A stretch of 64,000 nucleotides of DNA, from positions 128,001 through 192,000 of the forward strand of contig CAVPXM010000030.1 of assembly GCA_963709405.1 (NCBI GenBank), read 5' to 3'. Below the pieces are notes generated by a model that made no database searches, was not told the DNA's origin, and worked only from the letters and a program-made list of their open reading frames with translations. This document shows positions 26,768-61,647 of this stretch, one piece after another (the stretch's first letter is position 1; each line of letters begins with the position of its first letter). This DNA is from an uncultured Nitrososphaerales archaeon. GTDB lineage: Archaea > Thermoproteota > Nitrososphaeria > Nitrososphaerales > Nitrososphaeraceae. Both the position numbers and the translations under genes were made by a program.

Positions 26768-27169
26768 TCAGCTTTTTCCCTTATAATTGGCTGTGATCAA
26801 ATCTTGCACGTCTTTAGTTATGTCTATTACGGTGTGAGAATCTACATTTGGTTCGATAGATAGTAGTAGGGTAAATTTTTCCATATAGAATGTGAGCATC
26901 GAAATCTTCTCGCGCTCTACGTATGCAAACCTGGCTCTACCCATGGACTTATCAAATCTCTGTCTCATAGATTTTCTAAGGGCAGTTTGGACCAAATACA
27001 ATTCGTCATTATCCTGTGCCGTTATGGAATCAATTCCTTTACGCATACCACCTGCAATCAGAGATCCAAAATCATCAATAATTCCTGCGTATCTAATATC
27101 ATCATGTAAGGCAAATACTTGTTGACACAATTCCTCAAAATTCAATACTGCTATTAGTGAAAAATTCAC
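26768..27169 (-). CDS. Roadblock/longin-like small protein (thaumarchaeal type)
   Basis: 'IRYAGIIDDFGSLIAGGMRKGI...FAYVEREK' roadblock-like pattern. Confidence 0.7.
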   Translation of the reverse strand: MNFSLIAVLNFEELCQQVFALHDDIRYAGIIDDFGSLIAGGMRKGIDSITAQDNDELYLVQTALRKSMRQRFDKSMGRARFAYVEREKISMLTFYMEKFTLLLSIEPNVDSHTVIDITKDVQDLITANYKGKS

Positions 27170-43335: not shown

Positions 43336-44497
43336 GTGAGGATCCTACATTTTTCGAATATAAGTTTGCCGTATTGGAGAATTGAGAAAGGCAGCCATCA
43401 GTGCATTAAATCGAGGCCACGAGATTTTTTTTGTAGGAAATGATTCAGTCAATTATAATAATAAAATCTTCTCTAAAATATACAAAATTAATTGGACAGC
43501 AAAGGCGAGATTAGGAATTCCGACGTATTGGTATTATCTAAAAAAGGAGGTGGGAAAAGTCATGAAGGAAGTAAAACCAGACATAGTCCATGCTCATAAT
43601 ATTTTTTCAGCAAAGATGATCTCTGAATTTGGGCTACCATTCATATATGACGATCATGAATATTGGTCTCAATTTTCAAAACTAATTTCTGAAATGGTTG
43701 ATACATTATCTTGGAGAGACAGATCACCAGCGGATACTGTAAGAACAATTGCAATTGGTTTACCTACAAAAGTAAGAAGAACTATTATAAATCGATATGC
43801 AATACATTTGTGGACGAACTGGGAAAAAGAAGTGGTCTCGTCCGCTCCCACTATTACAGTATCTGATAAAATCGCCGAAGGGTTAAGAGTAACAGGTAAT
43901 AGTGATAAAGTCTTCATAGTACCAAATTTTCCGATGAAATTTGAGACTGAAAATCTCGCGAAGCCATACGTCCAATCAAGGTTATCATCCGTTTATGCAG
44001 GGTCTGATGGCCTCAACAAGCAAAAAATACCAAACCGAAATATAGACGGAATTACAGACATATTTATCAATCGAAATATAGGCGAACTTACCATTATTGG
44101 ATGGGAAGGAAGATCTTCGTCTGAGAAGATTAGGTATGCTGGTCTTCTCCCTCGACAAGCCATGTTTACTGAAATGTTCGAACATTCGATCGGATTAATA
44201 CCGTTCAAAAAACATTGGTCACATTTTTTTGTGAGCCCAAACAAAGCATATGAATATGCACATGCTGGTCTTTTTGTTCTGGTGCAACATCTTCTCTAAT
44301 ACCCGTACAAGACACCTTGGAGGACAATTGCATCACATTTGAAGATTACAATGATCTGGTATCAAACTCAATAGTACTTCAGAGACAATCTAGAGGAGCT
44401 CTACCAGAAGAGACTAAAAATATTTGAATATGCCCATCAACATTTGATTTGGGAAAATTATGAGAAAAATATATTTCGTGCGTATCAGTTGAGTTGA
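43336..44497 (+). CDS. Glycosyltransferase (GT4-like, family A), frameshifted
   Basis: GTG 'RILHFS..LPYWRIEK', 'PDIVHAHN', 'YDDHEYW', 'SPNKAYEYAHAGL', 'WENYEKNI'. Confidence 0.8.
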
Positions 44498-49611: not shown

Positions 49612-50744
49612 TTAACATAGCTGATATGCTGTCAATATATTTTTCTCATAATTTTCCCAAATCAAATGTTGATGGGCATATTCAAATATTTTTAGCCTCT
49701 TCTGGTAGAGCTCCTCTAGATTGTCTCTGAATACTCTAATTGTGAGGCAAGGTCATGATAGTCTTCAAAGGTAGCACAATTATCTTTCAATGTTTGTATG
49801 TACGGTTCTAAATGAAGAAGTGCACATGATAAGAAGGCCTGAATGTGCATATTCATACGCTTTGTTAGGACTCACGAATGTGTGGGAAATGTGTTTTTTC
49901 CATGGTATTAATCCGATCGAATGTTTGAACATTTCTCTGAACATTGCTTCTCTTGACAGAAGCCCTGCGTAATTGACGTTTTCAGACGATTTCCCTTGAC
50001 TACCAATTAATGTCAAATAACCGATGTTGCGACGCATAAATAGATCAGTGAGACCCTCTATGTCTCGATTTATTTGTTTTTTCTGCGCCTCGATACCTGC
50101 ATAACGCGATGACAACTTGGTATGGATGCATGGCCGATCAAAATCTTTTACTTCATGTTTCATTGGAAAATTCGGAACTACAAACACTCTGTCAGAATTC
50201 CCTATGACCCTAATTCTTCAGCAATTTTATCAGATACCGTGATCGTCGGAGAAGATGGAAATAAGCTCTTTTTCCCATTTTGTCCATAATCGTATGGCAT
50301 AACGCTTTAGAAAATTTCTCGCAACTCTTCTAATCGTATTCCTTGGTAAACTGGGCAGCAACAGGTTTTGTTTCCTTATCGTCTCCCTGGGCCAGGATCT
50401 TTGAAAATTCTGACCAAAATTCATGATCATCATATATATATGGTAGCCCAAATTCAGATATTTATCTTTGCTGAAAAAATATTATGAGCATGGACTATGT
50501 CAGGCCTAACTTCTCTTATCACTTTCCCAACTTGCTTTTTAACAGAATGCCAGTAAAAAGGAAATCCTCGCCTTGATCTTTCTGTCCACTCAATCTCATA
50601 TTTTCCAGAAAAAGTGTTTGTGTGATAGGTTTTTGAATTTCGTCCTGCAAATACAACATCGTGGCCTACCTTTAACGCTGTAATCGCTGATTTTTCGATT
50701 CTCCAATCAGGTAATCTGTCGTCGGACAAGTGCAAGATTTTCAA
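49612..50744 (-). CDS. Glycosyltransferase (family A paralog), several frameshifts
   Basis: 'KILHLSDDRLPDWRIEKSA', 'PDIVHAHNIF', 'SPNKAYEYAHSGL'. Confidence 0.8.
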
Positions 50745-52709: not shown

Positions 52710-53622
52710 TCAACGTGCATCTTGTATTTTTTCTCAAGAATCTGATACTTTTGTAAGTCGACAAGTCTATTGAATTCATCGAACGTAGTCATCATCTTTC
52801 TGTGTTTTACTGTCGTTACCTTTCCTTTTTAACTCTGTAAAGACTTCATTAACTGCGTAAGTAGCTCGGATATAATCCTGATAATGGGAAAACGGCAATT
52901 CTATATCCAATATCAAGGAGTCGTTTTGCGTTCATATTCGGTGTGATTCCATCTTCGATTATGTTTGCGACCAATGGCGCGTCAATTTCGTTAGTAACTT
53001 TCTTTAATTCTGCAACTGATCTTGGAGCTTCTATAAAAATCACGTCTGCACCAACCTCTCGGTATGCTCTTCCGCGTCTTATAGCTCTCATCCAATCCTA
53101 GCGGTGCTCTCGAATCTGTTCTCGCAACTACAATGAACTCTTTGCTCTTCCTTGCTTCCAGAGGCCTCCTCTCAACTTCGAGATATAATCTTCCATTCCG
53201 ATAACATCTTTACCTTGCATATGTCCGCATCTTTTTGGCCAGATTTGATCTTCTATAAAGATACCGGCCGCGCCTATCGATTCTAAATCGCGAACGATTT
53301 TCCAAACGGTTAACGGATTGCCATAGCCTGTGTCTATATCGACTATAACTGGCGAATCCACAGATCGAATAATTCGAGTTGCATTCTCTATCGTTTCGCC
53401 AGCATTTAAGAAGCCGTAGTCTGGCATTCCAAGCAGCGAAGCAGCAGAACCGTATCCGGTCTGAAACATAGCATCAAATCCAACATTCTCCGCTATTTTT
53501 GCAGTCAATGCATCAAAAACTCCTGGAAGAACGAGAATATTCTTCTTGTCCTCAATCTTTTCTCTTAAAGATTTATTATTTTTCTGCTTCCTCAATTGCT
53601 TTTGTCTAAAAGGAGATTGCAA
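52710..53622 (-). CDS. prpB: 2-methylisocitrate lyase (ICL/PEPM family), several frameshifts
   Basis: 'DIDTGYG', 'IEDQIWPKRCGHM', 'ARTDS', 'GADVIFIEAP'. Confidence 0.85.
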
Positions 53623-54450: not shown

Positions 54451-54640
54451 TTTTATGATTCAATTTCCCCTATGACGCAGATTGTATCGACCTCCACTAT
54501 TAATTGAAACAGTAATAGAGTAAGTGTCTCGATTGTATTTTTAACCCGATTCGAGCCGCTGCTTTCTAACCCATATATTGCCAAACACTAATCGGTCGAT
54601 CACATTGTTGGGAAGGAATCGGTTTATGTGATATAAAACC

Positions 54641-54707
54641 CCCTAGTTGTAACACGATCACCCTAGACGCAACACATTACGAGAACTCCCGGCTTCGCAA
54701 CAGCACT
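54641..54707 (-). mobile_element. Orphan terminal end of a second, related IS6-like element
   Basis: Revcomp AGTGCTGTTGCGAAGCCGGG..GTTGCGTCTAGGG..GTTACAACTAGGG with boxes at positions 7/35/55; abuts TTCTAAGG. Confidence 0.75.
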
Positions 54708-54829
54708 TTCTAAGGAGTCCTGCTGCAATATCGGGCTCTATTCACTAGCGTTGCATTCGGGTGCTAAGTGTTGCACGACGGGAGCTTATTAATTTATAAA
54801 TAGTCTTCTATAACATTATACGAGAAGTA

Positions 54830-55294
54830 TTGTCGGATGATTAGAAGAAGCAAAGAGACTTGCTACTAATTATTTAGAGGCTCAGTTAAAAATGGCTGAA
54901 AAGCTTTTATTGTTAGATGATTCTGATATCCAGAAGTTCAACAAGTGGTACAAGAGTTTCCCCTATGGACGTCATTGCCTGCTAGATTACTTGAGTTAAA
55001 TAATAGGAGAAATAAAACCAAGCAATAAATATCATTTAATTTCATATTGAAGTTATTGAGCAAGCCTGAAGCACCGCCATTTGATTTATTAACACTATAT
55101 AAAAACTTGGAGAGTCTTGGGAGGATTTTATCATTCAAACTAATGCGGTCATGATGACCAATTATGATGCATGGTTCGACTCAACTTGTAAATACCTTTG
55201 CGATTTCCTTAAACCTCAGGTTCGAGCATGGCTTGAGGCAAATTCTAGGCAGTTAGTAGAAAAGAAAAGTCAGAGAACTGCTCCACTTCAGTAA
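54830..55294 (+). pseudogene. Frameshifted passenger ORF inside the IS
   Basis: Protein-like runs 'LEEAKRLATNYLEAQLKMAEKLLLLDD..KFNKWYKSFPYG' and 'YDAWFDSTCKYLCDFLKPQVRAWLEAN'; TTTATAAA upstream. Confidence 0.5.
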
Positions 55295-55535
55295 GTAATT
55301 ATTTGGAATAAGAGATGCGAATGCAGCGTATGGTATGTCCAGCGCTGAAGCGAAATATTGGAAAAAAATAGGCATTGCAACAGGCTACAACTGGTGAGCA
55401 TTGCCCTAGTGGCAGTGGGAGCCATAGTAGCCTACCTCAAACTAGCGAACAGTTGCGACTGCTAATAACAGTCAAGTAGTCCACCTAAGACAACCCTCAT
55501 TTTTTCAGCCATAATAATGTGTCGAGTCGTCAGCT

Positions 55536-56462
55536 TTAAACATTTTGCTTCTTAATCCAGCAACTCTCCTTCCCGTAAGAAAACCACGAAAAGCCATGCT
55601 CTATTAATATCTCGTTAATATCTCTCCAGTCTTTCTTATTCATCCAGTCTTTAGGTTTGATTTCGATGCTATCATCTTTACGAATTATATCTAGTTTATT
55701 AACTCTAATACCTAATTCGAAAATGAACGGCTCCACTTTCCCTTTAACCGCCGCCTGTCTCATTAGGCTTTCCACTTTGTTATGACCTAAATGCAGTTCT
55801 AACCCTGCTTTTTCTGCGGGTGTCTGCTTCTTTAATGCCTGATGAGGTCTAATGAAATTATGATGAATACGCATGGCATCGACTAGTTCCTGTGTGGGAT
55901 TTGCTTTGTCCAATCCATGCATGACGCTTTCTCTATCCCTTACGGTTTCATTCAGCCATTCGACCTTCGAGTTTAATCCCTGATGTCCTGAGCCTATGCT
56001 TCTGACGTTTTGGATCTTCGGATTCTTTAGAGTAAAAAGTTCTTTATTAAACGCATCGTCATAGGCTGGTAGTCCATCATGAATTAGAGCTGAAGGTAAG
56101 GGTGCGCGCCGTTTCATCTCCTTAAATAGCGCTACACCTGATTTGGTGTCACGTTTCTGGCTTATCCTAGAGCATATCCAGAATCTAGTAGTAGAATCCA
56201 TTAGATTCCATAGCCATGAATAGTGATTATCGAACTGTCTGTTAGGGTGGTTCTCTGGATTGCTTAGCATCATCTTAGATTCATTATTTTCCTTACGGAC
56301 ATGTAGCATCATTTCGTCTACCTGATAAACACCTCCGACCTGTGGCACCAAACTGTCCACATATGGCTTAACTGTATTACTGAACTTACGTAACCATCTA
56401 CAGATAGAAGAGCAATTAATTCTAAAGTCGTAGAACTGTTTCAGAAGGTCTGCTATTTTACG
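55536..56462 (-). CDS. IS6-family DDE transposase, N-terminally truncated, with extra C-terminal domain
   Basis: HTH 'RKIADLLKQFY..INCSSICRWL', D 'YQVDE', D 'IHDGLPAY', E 'NSKVEWLN', 'HHNFIRPHQAL..QTPAE'; in-frame TAG just before RKIAD. Confidence 0.88.
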   Translation of the reverse strand, partial: RKIADLLKQFYDFRINCSSICRWLRKFSNTVKPYVDSLVPQVGGVYQVDEMMLHVRKENNESKMMLSNPENHPNRQFDNHYSWLWNLMDSTTRFWICSRISQKRDTKSGVALFKEMKRRAPLPSALIHDGLPAYDDAFNKELFTLKNPKIQNVRSIGSGHQGLNSKVEWLNETVRDRESVMHGLDKANPTQELVDAMRIHHNFIRPHQALKKQTPAEKAGLELHLGHNKVESLMRQAAVKGKVEPFIFELGIRVNKLDIIRKDDSIEIKPKDWMNKKDWRDINEILIEHGFSWFSYGKESCWIKKQNV

Positions 56463-56505
56463 CTACGGCCAAATGGTTTATAATGAAAGTTTACAAATTC
56501 TTCAA

Positions 56506-56763
56506 TTATCGTATTTCTATGTATGAGTAGTCTTTCTTCACATCTGTTCCGCGCTTCATTTCTTTTCTCGAATTTGTAACTAAAAAACCTGTCAGTACTT
56601 CCGAAATTATGAGTCCCAGTAGTAGAAGATTTGGAACGGTTCCCTCCTTCTGTCCGAAAATTAGGCCTAATTGAGCCCCAAATAGCACGACTACGAGTAT
56701 CGTCACAAGTATACCTATGGAAATTATTGTACCAAGGATGTGACGCCGTGTGAACCGTATCAT
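56506..56763 (-). CDS. Two-TM passenger protein inside the IS
   Basis: 85 aa with two hydrophobic helices; TATA-like TTTATTAA/TTTATA upstream. Confidence 0.55.
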   Translation of the reverse strand: MIRFTRRHILGTIISIGILVTILVVVLFGAQLGLIFGQKEGTVPNLLLLGLIISEVLTGFLVTNSRKEMKRGTDVKKDYSYIEIR

Positions 56764-56940
56764 GACGAAATATTCTCCTTCGTAGCGATATAAATAACTT
56801 AATAAACTTCAGTAGATCGGCAGAGACTCCCGGTATGCAACGTCTAGCACCCGAATGCATCAGTCATTCAAAGCTCCCGATTTTGCAGCAGGACTTTCTA
56901 AGGAAAAGAATATAACTGTCACTAGCGATATTAGCAGTGG

Positions 56941-57450
56941 ATGCTTTCGCATTGGTTTTCTCGTGTTGGTAGTTCTATTCCAAGAGGATTTTCTAGACAT
57001 TATGTTTTGGGTTTACTTAAGGAAAAACCAATGACAGGAAAGGAGATCATGGACAGAGCAATATATGAAAGTGACGGAAAATGGAGGCCATCTCCGGGCT
57101 TGATATATCCTATGCTGGGAAGATTACTTGAAGAGGGTCTAATCGATGAAATAGAAAACGGCAGATATAGGACTACCCAGAGCGGGGAAGATACAGCTGC
57201 TGATATGAAATCTTTGCACAACATTGTACAAAAGCAGTTAGATGTTATACTTCGAGTGGGAAACGTGGGCAAATTTATGGCGTTTGATCTGATAGATAGA
57301 GTGTCTGCAATAGGATCCGCACTGAGTTCAAATCTAGATAGAATGACCGAACAAGAAAAGGAAAAATACAAAGAATTTCTCTTAACTGAGTTAGCCAAAC
57401 TTGACGACCAAGAAAATATCAATCAGAAGATCACTTTAGAGCAAGAATAG
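56941..57450 (+). CDS. PadR-family transcriptional regulator
   Basis: '[16 protein letters not shown]...[21 protein letters not shown]'. Confidence 0.92.
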
Positions 57451-60756: not shown

Positions 60757-61647
60757 ATGCATACAACATTAACATGCCCTGGATGCAGTAAAGGTCATCT
60801 AATTGCTGACGCTGATACTGGAGAGATAATTTGCGACAGCTGTGGTTTGGTTCAAGTTTCTGATTACCAGGATCGCAGTCTGTTAACGGCTTCTATTAAA
60901 TATCCAAGTAGAAGCAATGTGGGCTCGTCAAACTTTGCATTAATCTGTAGGGATATCGAATATTCTACAGTAATTGATAGGGCAAATACCGATGCTAGGG
61001 GTCATAAACTAGATCCAAGCACATTATCTAGAATGCAGAGATTGCGTACGTGGGATTTCAGACTTCGTACTGATTCTAACGCGGCTAGGAACATTAAACA
61101 AGCACTAAATGAGCTGGATGCCCTAAAGGATAAGCTTGGTCTTCCAGATGCTGTACTTGAGAAAGCGTCATATATATATAGAAAAGCTCAGGTGAAGGGT
61201 CTAGTTCATGGAAGATCGATATCTGCAATCTTATGTACTGCAGTATACATCGCTTGTAGGGAGATGGGTACTCCCAGAACGCTGAAGGAAATCTCTGTGA
61301 TTGCGAACCTTGAAAGAAAGGATATTGCAAGGGACTATAGACTACTTGTAACTGAGCTTGATCTTCAAATCCCATTACTCGATCCTTTGAAATGTATTGT
61401 GGGAGTGGCAAATAGAATAAATATAAGCGAAAAAACTAAACGGCTCGCTCTTGATTCAATGAGTGAGATAATAAGAACCGAAATCTCTGCCGGGAAGAAT
61501 CCTATGGGACTAGCTGCTACAGTCCTTTACGTTTCATGTCTTAAGAATAAAGAGAACAAAACACAGGCAGATATTGCACGAGCTGCAGGAATAACTGAGG
61601 TCACAATTAGGAATAGATACAGCGATTTGAAACGTACCATGATTTAA
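60757..61647 (+). CDS. tfb: Transcription initiation factor IIB paralog
   Basis: Zn ribbon CPGC..CDSCG; cyclin repeats 'GRSISAI..AVYIACR', 'GKNPMGLAA', 'TEVTIRNRY'. Confidence 0.95.
   Translation: MHTTLTCPGCSKGHLIADADTGEIICDSCGLVQVSDYQDRSLLTASIKYPSRSNVGSSNFALICRDIEYSTVIDRANTDARGHKLDPSTLSRMQRLRTWDFRLRTDSNAARNIKQALNELDALKDKLGLPDAVLEKASYIYRKAQVKGLVHGRSISAILCTAVYIACREMGTPRTLKEISVIANLERKDIARDYRLLVTELDLQIPLLDPLKCIVGVANRINISEKTKRLALDSMSEIIRTEISAGKNPMGLAATVLYVSCLKNKENKTQADIARAAGITEVTIRNRYSDLKRTMI

Follow-up and report, generated by a model that had tools for sequence, protein, structure and literature searches.

Ty3 inserts at the start site of genes transcribed by Pol III. In bacteria, according to the portions of PMC3942029 available to us, TnGBS and ISLre2 (p-MULT 3), together with the ISKra4 group, insert 15-17 bp before the sigmaA -35 box, and contact with the initiation complex has been proposed for them. 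For the IS6/IS26 family, the excerpts on which we could draw describe end-targeting by IS26 and no promoter targeting (PMC7986276), count thaumarchaeal insertion sequences by family without target rules for them (PMC6563490), and state that there are no experimental data for the archaeal IS6 members, which might fall outside the family (PMC6807381). Our search of the literature, which was largely confined to open-access articles, returned no account of archaeal IS6-like elements whose insertion is anchored to a TATA box or an operator.

Here we describe a site in a 64,000-nucleotide stretch of DNA from an uncultured Nitrososphaerales archaeon (hereafter the window, its genome being G000), where two IS6-like elements have entered at one nucleotide in front of a gene for a PadR-like transcription regulator. 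These elements and their relatives share with IS6/IS26 members (IS26, IS257, the long zinc-finger clades, ISDsp3) the DDE_Tnp_IS240 core, an 8-bp duplication and, as far as the CTG at positions 5-7, a cTGTt-like terminal motif. However, whereas IS6/IS26 elements are about 800-900 bp long, encode a transposase only and have 14-20 bp ends starting GG, those described here span 2.2-5 kb, carry passengers and a SWIM domain, and have three-box ends, many of which start with A; they also differ in fixed-distance targeting and polar stacks.

Two insertions at one target site

The older element, A, survives as a three-box terminal repeat on the minus strand (54641-54707) and a remnant of its interior (54483-54640; the left boundary is approximate, having been placed by aligning the alleles of G003, G004 and G005). 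The initial annotation had described this end, with boxes at 7, 35 and 55, as distinct from its neighbour and as stopping precisely at TTCTAAGG, and in all of this it was correct: the same box spacing recurs at both ends of element B, A is identical to the left and right ends of B at 36 and 37 of 70 positions respectively, and it stops exactly at the left copy of the 8-bp target duplication TTCTAAGG (54708-54715, plus strand), which A and B have in common. Element B (54716-56895, 2180 bp) is a non-autonomous IS6-like element delimited by the 8-bp duplication and by inverted ends identical at 19 of 20 terminal bases. It comprises left and right three-box ends (54716-54785, plus strand; 56826-56895, minus strand), a 5'-truncated transposase gene (55536-56450, minus strand; PF13610, E 2.8e-9) and an ORF for an 85-amino acid hydrophobic protein, probably a passenger gene (56506-56763, minus strand), with no Pfam family above its cut-off. 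We number the target from its first duplicated base, the right copy of TTCTAAGG (56896-56903, plus strand) thus occupying +1 to +8. Beyond it, all on the plus strand, lie a degenerate BRE/TATA-like stretch that may act in the padR promoter (56903-56916, +8 to +21; profile score 1.5), a conserved palindrome TCACTAGCGATAT with TC at +24 that is a putative PadR-like operator and is found in tandem in many relatives (56919-56931), and the host landmark, a padR-like transcription regulator gene (56941-57450; PF03551, E 5.8e-10), the start of which is 45 nt from the right copy of TTCTAAGG.

Inspection by eye had found no partner for A, and a six-end profile run against the whole 4.83-Mb, 100-contig genome agrees, returning those six ends alone at E <= 3e-15, with the next match at E = 21. 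The companion claim, that there is no third TTCTAAGG, holds for element ends but not for the window at large, where the 8-mer also occurs at 26974 (plus strand) and twice on the minus strand; the genome-wide count is 180. Likewise, the proposal that two distinct elements entered at one nucleotide stands as regards repeated insertion, although A is a relic rather than an intact second element; alignment with three congeners indicates that it has lost its left end and is no longer than about 230 bp. A was inserted earlier than B. The interior of A matches the copy on contig C92, described below, and nothing at any locus outside the site. Other family copies in the same genome (on C21, C26 and C23) are single ends only, with no duplication pair. 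We rejected apparent older relics before the 8-mer in G003, G004 and G005, where the end-like letters align with host sequence of the window. The annotation's suggestion of site-selective targeting is borne out, except that the letters of TTCTAAGG are not themselves what is recognised, since the duplicated 8-mer varies in almost every genus while its distance to a downstream TATA box, or to the palindrome before padR, is constant.

Two other features of this genome were recorded in passing. The cluster to the left of the site contains inverted, diverged glycosyltransferase-like duplicates (43619-44495 and 49614-50461), and a different high-copy DDE element, with frames of 305-311 amino acids and a weak alignment match, is present at more than 20 places in G000 (e.g., C13:35555-35959).

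Other occupants of the site

Three alleles were found at this nucleotide: A with B in the window, A with a different element on contig C92 and in three public runs, and A alone in one run. Contig C92, probably from a co-binned strain, duplicates about 22 kb of the window locus (C30:160446-184463) at 91-99% identity, with different gene content. End A is identical there at 67 of 70 positions; the ends of the second occupant match those of B at 52 and 42 of 70, the passengers differ, and the junction carries a 10-bp deletion. Four of 24 public runs were examined (X1, X5, X7 and X8). In X1, X5 and X8 the duplication and padR follow a C92-type right end, with the 10-bp deletion of C92 also present in X5 and X8. 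On one contig of X7, 54700 runs directly into 56889, the 2188 bp skipped being B plus one duplication. The recurrence of the same A end at the same junction in C92 and in public contigs means that the A junction is no chance resemblance. All four runs lack coverage of 54840-55575 and 56496-56863, within B, and so the A-B junction of the window is known from the assembly alone.

Within the window, a prpB-like gene (52849-53622) is split by frameshifts, as is the main TBP gene elsewhere in the genome (G000:C47:56649-57165); both are intact in C92 or congeners and the frameshifts are probably sequencing errors. The genome also has a second, divergent TBP-like gene (C42:38403-38840) and 32 TFIIB-repeat matches, reflecting many TFB paralogues, one of them in the window (60757-61647).

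The padR promoter in relatives

The padR-like gene has matches in 57 of the 61 genomes searched. Among the 30 best loci, 28 promoters could be assessed, and in nine of these, counting the window, an element end stands at a constant position, 22-23 nt before the palindrome TC(A/G/T)CTAG(C/T)GATAT. The duplicated 8-mers differ between lineages but are identical on both sides of complete elements (as in G006, G002, G021 and G004), which argues that insertion took place separately once the lineages had parted; the stack in G002 also includes a transposase of just 30% identity, and its ends are dissimilar. Because it stands in tandem copies both before the padR-like gene and before a paralogue, we read the palindrome as a putative operator of the PadR-like protein. 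The paralogue (G000:C30:52370-52869) is 63% identical and has the same tandem palindrome, with no element end there in this genome. Copper-limitation motifs were considered as a source of the palindrome and discarded, the motifs given in the accessible part of PMC7785015 being different.

Transposase and element structure

Homology identifies the transposase as a predicted DDE enzyme. The DDE_Tnp_IS240 domain (PF13610) is found in 15 of 15 members, the window protein scoring 37.7 bits against a cut-off of 27; Mutator-type PF00872 matches weakly in 12 of 15 (best E 2.4e-6; residues 154-231 of member 1), with the IS240 core scoring higher. In NCBIfam the best match is the IS6 equivalog NF033587, at 76.6 and 114.9 bits, below its cut-off of 125. 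Full-length members add to the DDE core an HTH, a zinc ribbon and, in 11 of 15 members, a SWIM finger; the B transposase retains that core and a C-terminal extension, the SWIM, zinc ribbon and most of the HTH having gone. A 126-row structure model (pLDDT 85) matches DDE enzymes only, with an integrase-type fold (Z 14.8, rmsd 3.0, 139 aligned), its N-terminal part being weakly like ZSWIM8 (Z 6.5, rmsd 3.5, 75 aligned); a poorer 15-row model (pLDDT 62) gave no structural match.

The ends keep CTG at positions 5-7; most wide-set ends start GG, while those of the clade that inserts at the palindrome, considered below, start AGT or ATT and are 70-bp and three-boxed. That clade has 26 diagnostic residues, of which 16 lie in the catalytic domain and five in the SWIM region. 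Besides passengers, elements of 2.2-5 kb carry a small regulator gene divergent from the transposase gene, and across 14 complete elements nothing beyond the transposase and a small RHH-like ORF is widespread. The small divergent gene (G000:C92:15955-16085, and in many elements) is RHH-like in this clade, has its own palindromes in the shared promoter and is probably an autoregulator. It was rejected as a target selector: judged by eye it may be RHH-like, AbrB-like or zinc-ribbon-like, and it is absent in G004, while the target is constant. The C-terminal beta/alpha extension (residues about 410-476; L116, L050, L060), which matches no assigned family, occurs in some members only and is also left in truncated copies, was rejected in the same role, many targeting members being without it. 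Within the transposase, the SWIM region stands out as a candidate for the part that aims it. A predicted complex of transposase residues 1-150 with TBP and the TFB core scored 0.01 with controls that were not folded, and is evidence for neither side.

A blind search by element ends

A 20-end model was run on other genomes of the family and found matches in 43 of 150. The fetched loci contained 121 end matches, 91 of which were kept as having a clean tip and E < 1e-4. A loose junction pattern, with a chance rate of 9%, fits 25 of these 91; in 32 of the remaining 66 the palindrome lies at +22 to +25, where about 0.001 per end is expected by chance, and these divide equally between padR (16) and other places (16). 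When only the 67 ends outside the training set are considered (loci L081 onward), there are 22 at the palindrome (eight at padR, 14 elsewhere), six at suf, four with a TATA box only, 17 at junctions and 18 with no landmark, the outcome anticipated for far sides. The genes following palindrome sites other than padR include those for copper-type P-ATPases, an M1 peptidase, TauE, a MOSC protein and a trypsin-PDZ protease, identified by scanning 15 proteins, two of which had no family; several such sites have no long ORF close by. The suf sites precede sufB and sufC, and a plain site, seen in two genomes, precedes aCPSF1.

The sufB/sufC promoters, at which insertion has been repeated (L072:3746, L088:1574, L106:1569, L111:2052, L115:6257, L117:3422, L150:4026), contain a palindrome of their own, ATAAC-n3-GTTAT, a candidate operator for an Fe-S regulator. 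A 166-bp miniature element at L122:3873-4038 has family ends and an 8-bp duplication and sits in register at the padR-type palindrome.

A family-wide register to the core promoter

An alignment search with the transposase supplied 159 loci, the best 79 of 487 genome relatives and the best 80 of 535 metagenome relatives, with hosts that include Bathyarchaeia, Thermoplasmatales, Methanoperedens, Methanoregulaceae, Archaeoglobaceae, Nitrosopumilaceae and others. Inverted ends with an 8-bp repeat were found at 65 of the 159, against nine with 7 bp and three with 9 bp; the 67 loci at 6 bp are the arithmetic result of shifting an 8-bp repeat by one base on each side. Two loci titled as bacteria (L197 and L219) gave no duplication pair.

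With family elements added, the pooled set held 79 elements at 73 sites, and in these a register to the TATA box is a solid rule. With the consensus YTTWWAWR and one mismatch, fixed beforehand, 45 of 130 non-junction flanks have a TATA start at +14, over a background of 0.016 per position, and in 45 of 73 sites the box starts at +13 to +15, where control windows average 4.9 and reach at most 9; the 28 sites that fail this strict test include that of the window. The base counts favour a purine at +8 and A at both +10 and +11, which is the BRE pattern, followed by TATA, so that the last duplicated base is the first BRE position. The ancestral landmark is thus a BRE-TATA core with the TATA start at +14. 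Elements take both orientations to this promoter, which is on one side of the transposase gene in 22 cases and on the other in 17 (P = 0.52). In a paired test, 13 of 19 promoter sides have the start of a long ORF between +31 and +100, as opposed to 5 of 19 far sides; an earlier test of ORF starts, with padR sites pooled into the group without TATA, showed no contrast (24/34 versus 33/68). Junctions account for 22 of the 158 flanks of the 79 elements, and in 11 of 14 elements with a single junction the free flank is the promoter side, i.e., the stacks are polar.

A second register in one clade

Sites with and without the palindrome were compared using a leave-one-out profile. The best TATA start is at +14 in 33 of 43 non-palindrome sites, these having been chosen by a 7/8 consensus match anywhere from +10 to +18. 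In 40 palindrome sites it is at +14 in 15 and at +16 in 14, a scatter inflated by the 2-bp ambiguity of TATA boxes, while TC, sought from +18 to +32, is at +24 in 34; these counts are not independent, as 24 of the 40 are padR orthologues from kin genomes and one 8-mer was counted twice. Among the 16 palindrome sites not at padR, TATA is at +14 in four and TC at +24 in 12. When elements are chosen by transposase alone, palindrome sites are found for eight of 10 with ends starting in A and for two of 54 others, a contrast confounded by host, most elements of other clades being in archaea that may not have this regulator.

In a midpoint-rooted FastTree phylogeny of 64 transposases (58 labelled alignment rows and six added by hand), 13 form a clade with support of 0.999, nested among members at TATA sites and comprising 11 palindrome rows, one suf and one TATA, five of the 13 having been added and labelled by hand; one of the 12 palindrome rows falls outside it. 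A, B and the C92 element are placed in this clade on the evidence of ends and transposases. Its members are also found at plain TATA and suf promoters, and elements of distant clades also occur at padR. Statistically, however, most insertions of the palindrome clade keep a fixed register to the palindrome, with TC at +24, and we are confident that this register, seen in one derived clade in Nitrososphaeria, is a real pattern and new here.

Discussion

These elements duplicate 8 bp, hold a fixed register and stack with a consistent polarity, and we consider it probable that the transposase chooses its target by a set spacing from a promoter landmark lying downstream, and that the stacks are built by re-use of the site. 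In the model that we propose, a long archaeal IS6-like DDE transposase would duplicate whatever eight bases sit at that distance before the landmark. The landmark would remain intact, and because it survives each insertion the next element could enter between the resident and the promoter, producing an end-8bp-end stack; at the present site A would have entered and then decayed, after which B, or another element in sister strains, entered on the promoter side of A. With the core promoter preserved, the site would be a safe harbour that could be used again.

On balance we favour the landmark being read through a bound host protein that tethers or positions the transpososome, which might be TBP/TFB on TATA boxes and the PadR-like regulator on the palindrome. 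The BRE signature, the repeated insertion at weak boxes and the three unlike downstream sequences used by one clade all point this way. More tentatively, and with less than even confidence, we suggest that the family as a whole docks on host promoter proteins and that in one clade a PadR-like regulator has replaced the TATA complex as the anchor, so that this clade homes to the regulon of that factor with single-base precision and without a selector of its own.

Fixed-distance targeting might instead be achieved by the transposase reading the DNA itself, as an A/T-rich bendable box or, in this clade, the palindrome. The landmark begins just 6 bp past the duplication, within reach of a DDE transposase, bound TFB could clash where the duplication meets the BRE, and the diagnostic residues of the palindrome clade lie largely in the catalytic domain, with some in the SWIM region; yet the targets bear the BRE signature that TFB reads, followed by gene starts, degenerate boxes such as that of the window are targeted repeatedly, and a single clade uses the palindrome, the suf palindrome or neither, and on this evidence we think direct reading unlikely. 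We regard as more doubtful still the idea that TBP/TFB alone sets the register, palindrome sites being hot spots only as repressor promoters where TBP/TFB is parked minus RNA polymerase. The archaeal repressors MDR1 and LrpA block polymerase while TBP/TFB stay bound, the suf promoters hold TATA near +14 while their own palindrome shifts from +24 to +30, and at padR-type palindromes too TATA is sometimes at +14 (the 15 of 40 above). Against this, L058, L126 and L251 have no TATA at +14 (scores -11 to -12) and still have TC at +24 or +25, and padR promoters with TATA at +16 keep TC at +24 in 10 of 11 cases.

The frequency of junctions might suggest that new elements aim at the end of a resident, by the targeted conservative route of IS26 or by end targeting as in IS911 and IS30, and IS26 and IS1216 are indeed described as targeting resident copies in the accessible part of PMC7986276. 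By the same account the IS26 route swaps flanks and makes no new duplication; moreover, lone elements hold the same register (L064, L122, L124, L178, L255, L257), which largely refutes this proposal, the stacks are polar, and neighbours may be as little as 30% identical with unlike ends, such that its probability is very small. Smaller again, to the point of being negligible, is the chance that the pattern reflects random insertion with selection, a single old inherited insertion, or misassembly. The assembly is rich in frameshifts and contains a co-binned second copy of the locus, and the interior of B is uncovered in the four runs examined. Nevertheless, a single-base register across archaeal classes refutes random or artefactual origins, inheritance is contradicted by duplications that match within each lineage and differ between lineages, and independent contigs show both the A-only allele and A with another element, contrary to misassembly.

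If insertion by docking on host proteins is true, the family would be an archaeal counterpart of promoter targeting by Ty3 and TnGBS, in an enzyme family thought to be unable to target in this way, and would show that a transposase can, in nature, exchange its anchor for the site of a transcription factor. In archaea that are difficult to grow, positions of insertion may flag promoters and what is probably a regulon (padR, copper ATPase, M1 peptidase, TauE and MOSC protein), while the stacks would represent re-usable safe harbours and an entry route for passenger genes. The family offers a compact system for asking how a lone DDE enzyme is aimed.

Comparison with known systems

Tn7 at attTn7 has multi-box ends, a fixed distance from a conserved landmark and polar tandem stacks, as here, but it encodes TnsC and TnsD/TniQ and makes 5-bp duplications. 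No Tn7-type ATPase, TniQ or TnsD gene was seen among the shared ORFs of 14 elements, as judged without a TniQ or TnsC profile search. Tn5053 and Tn402 are res-site hunters. Their likeness is to the second register, in that the target site is occupied by a protein not of the element; unlike the single transposase and single-base register found here, however, they need TniA, TniB and TniQ and their positions within res vary, as far as the available text of PMC7765201 goes. Ty3, which is guided by TFIIIB (PDB 7q5b, and as cited in the accessible part of PMC3942029), resembles this family in its register beside a TBP-type promoter complex, but it employs the integrase of an LTR retrotransposon with proven contact, whereas here insertion is upstream of the BRE and contact would be by analogy. 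The closest working likeness, on the same portion of PMC3942029, is with TnGBS/ISLre2 and ISKra4, DDE elements that likewise insert at a fixed distance upstream of promoters. TnGBS is bacterial, Mutator-like and fixed in orientation, whereas the elements described here are IS6-like, insert in both orientations at the BRE-TATA promoters of archaea and, in one clade, hold a second register at a palindrome.
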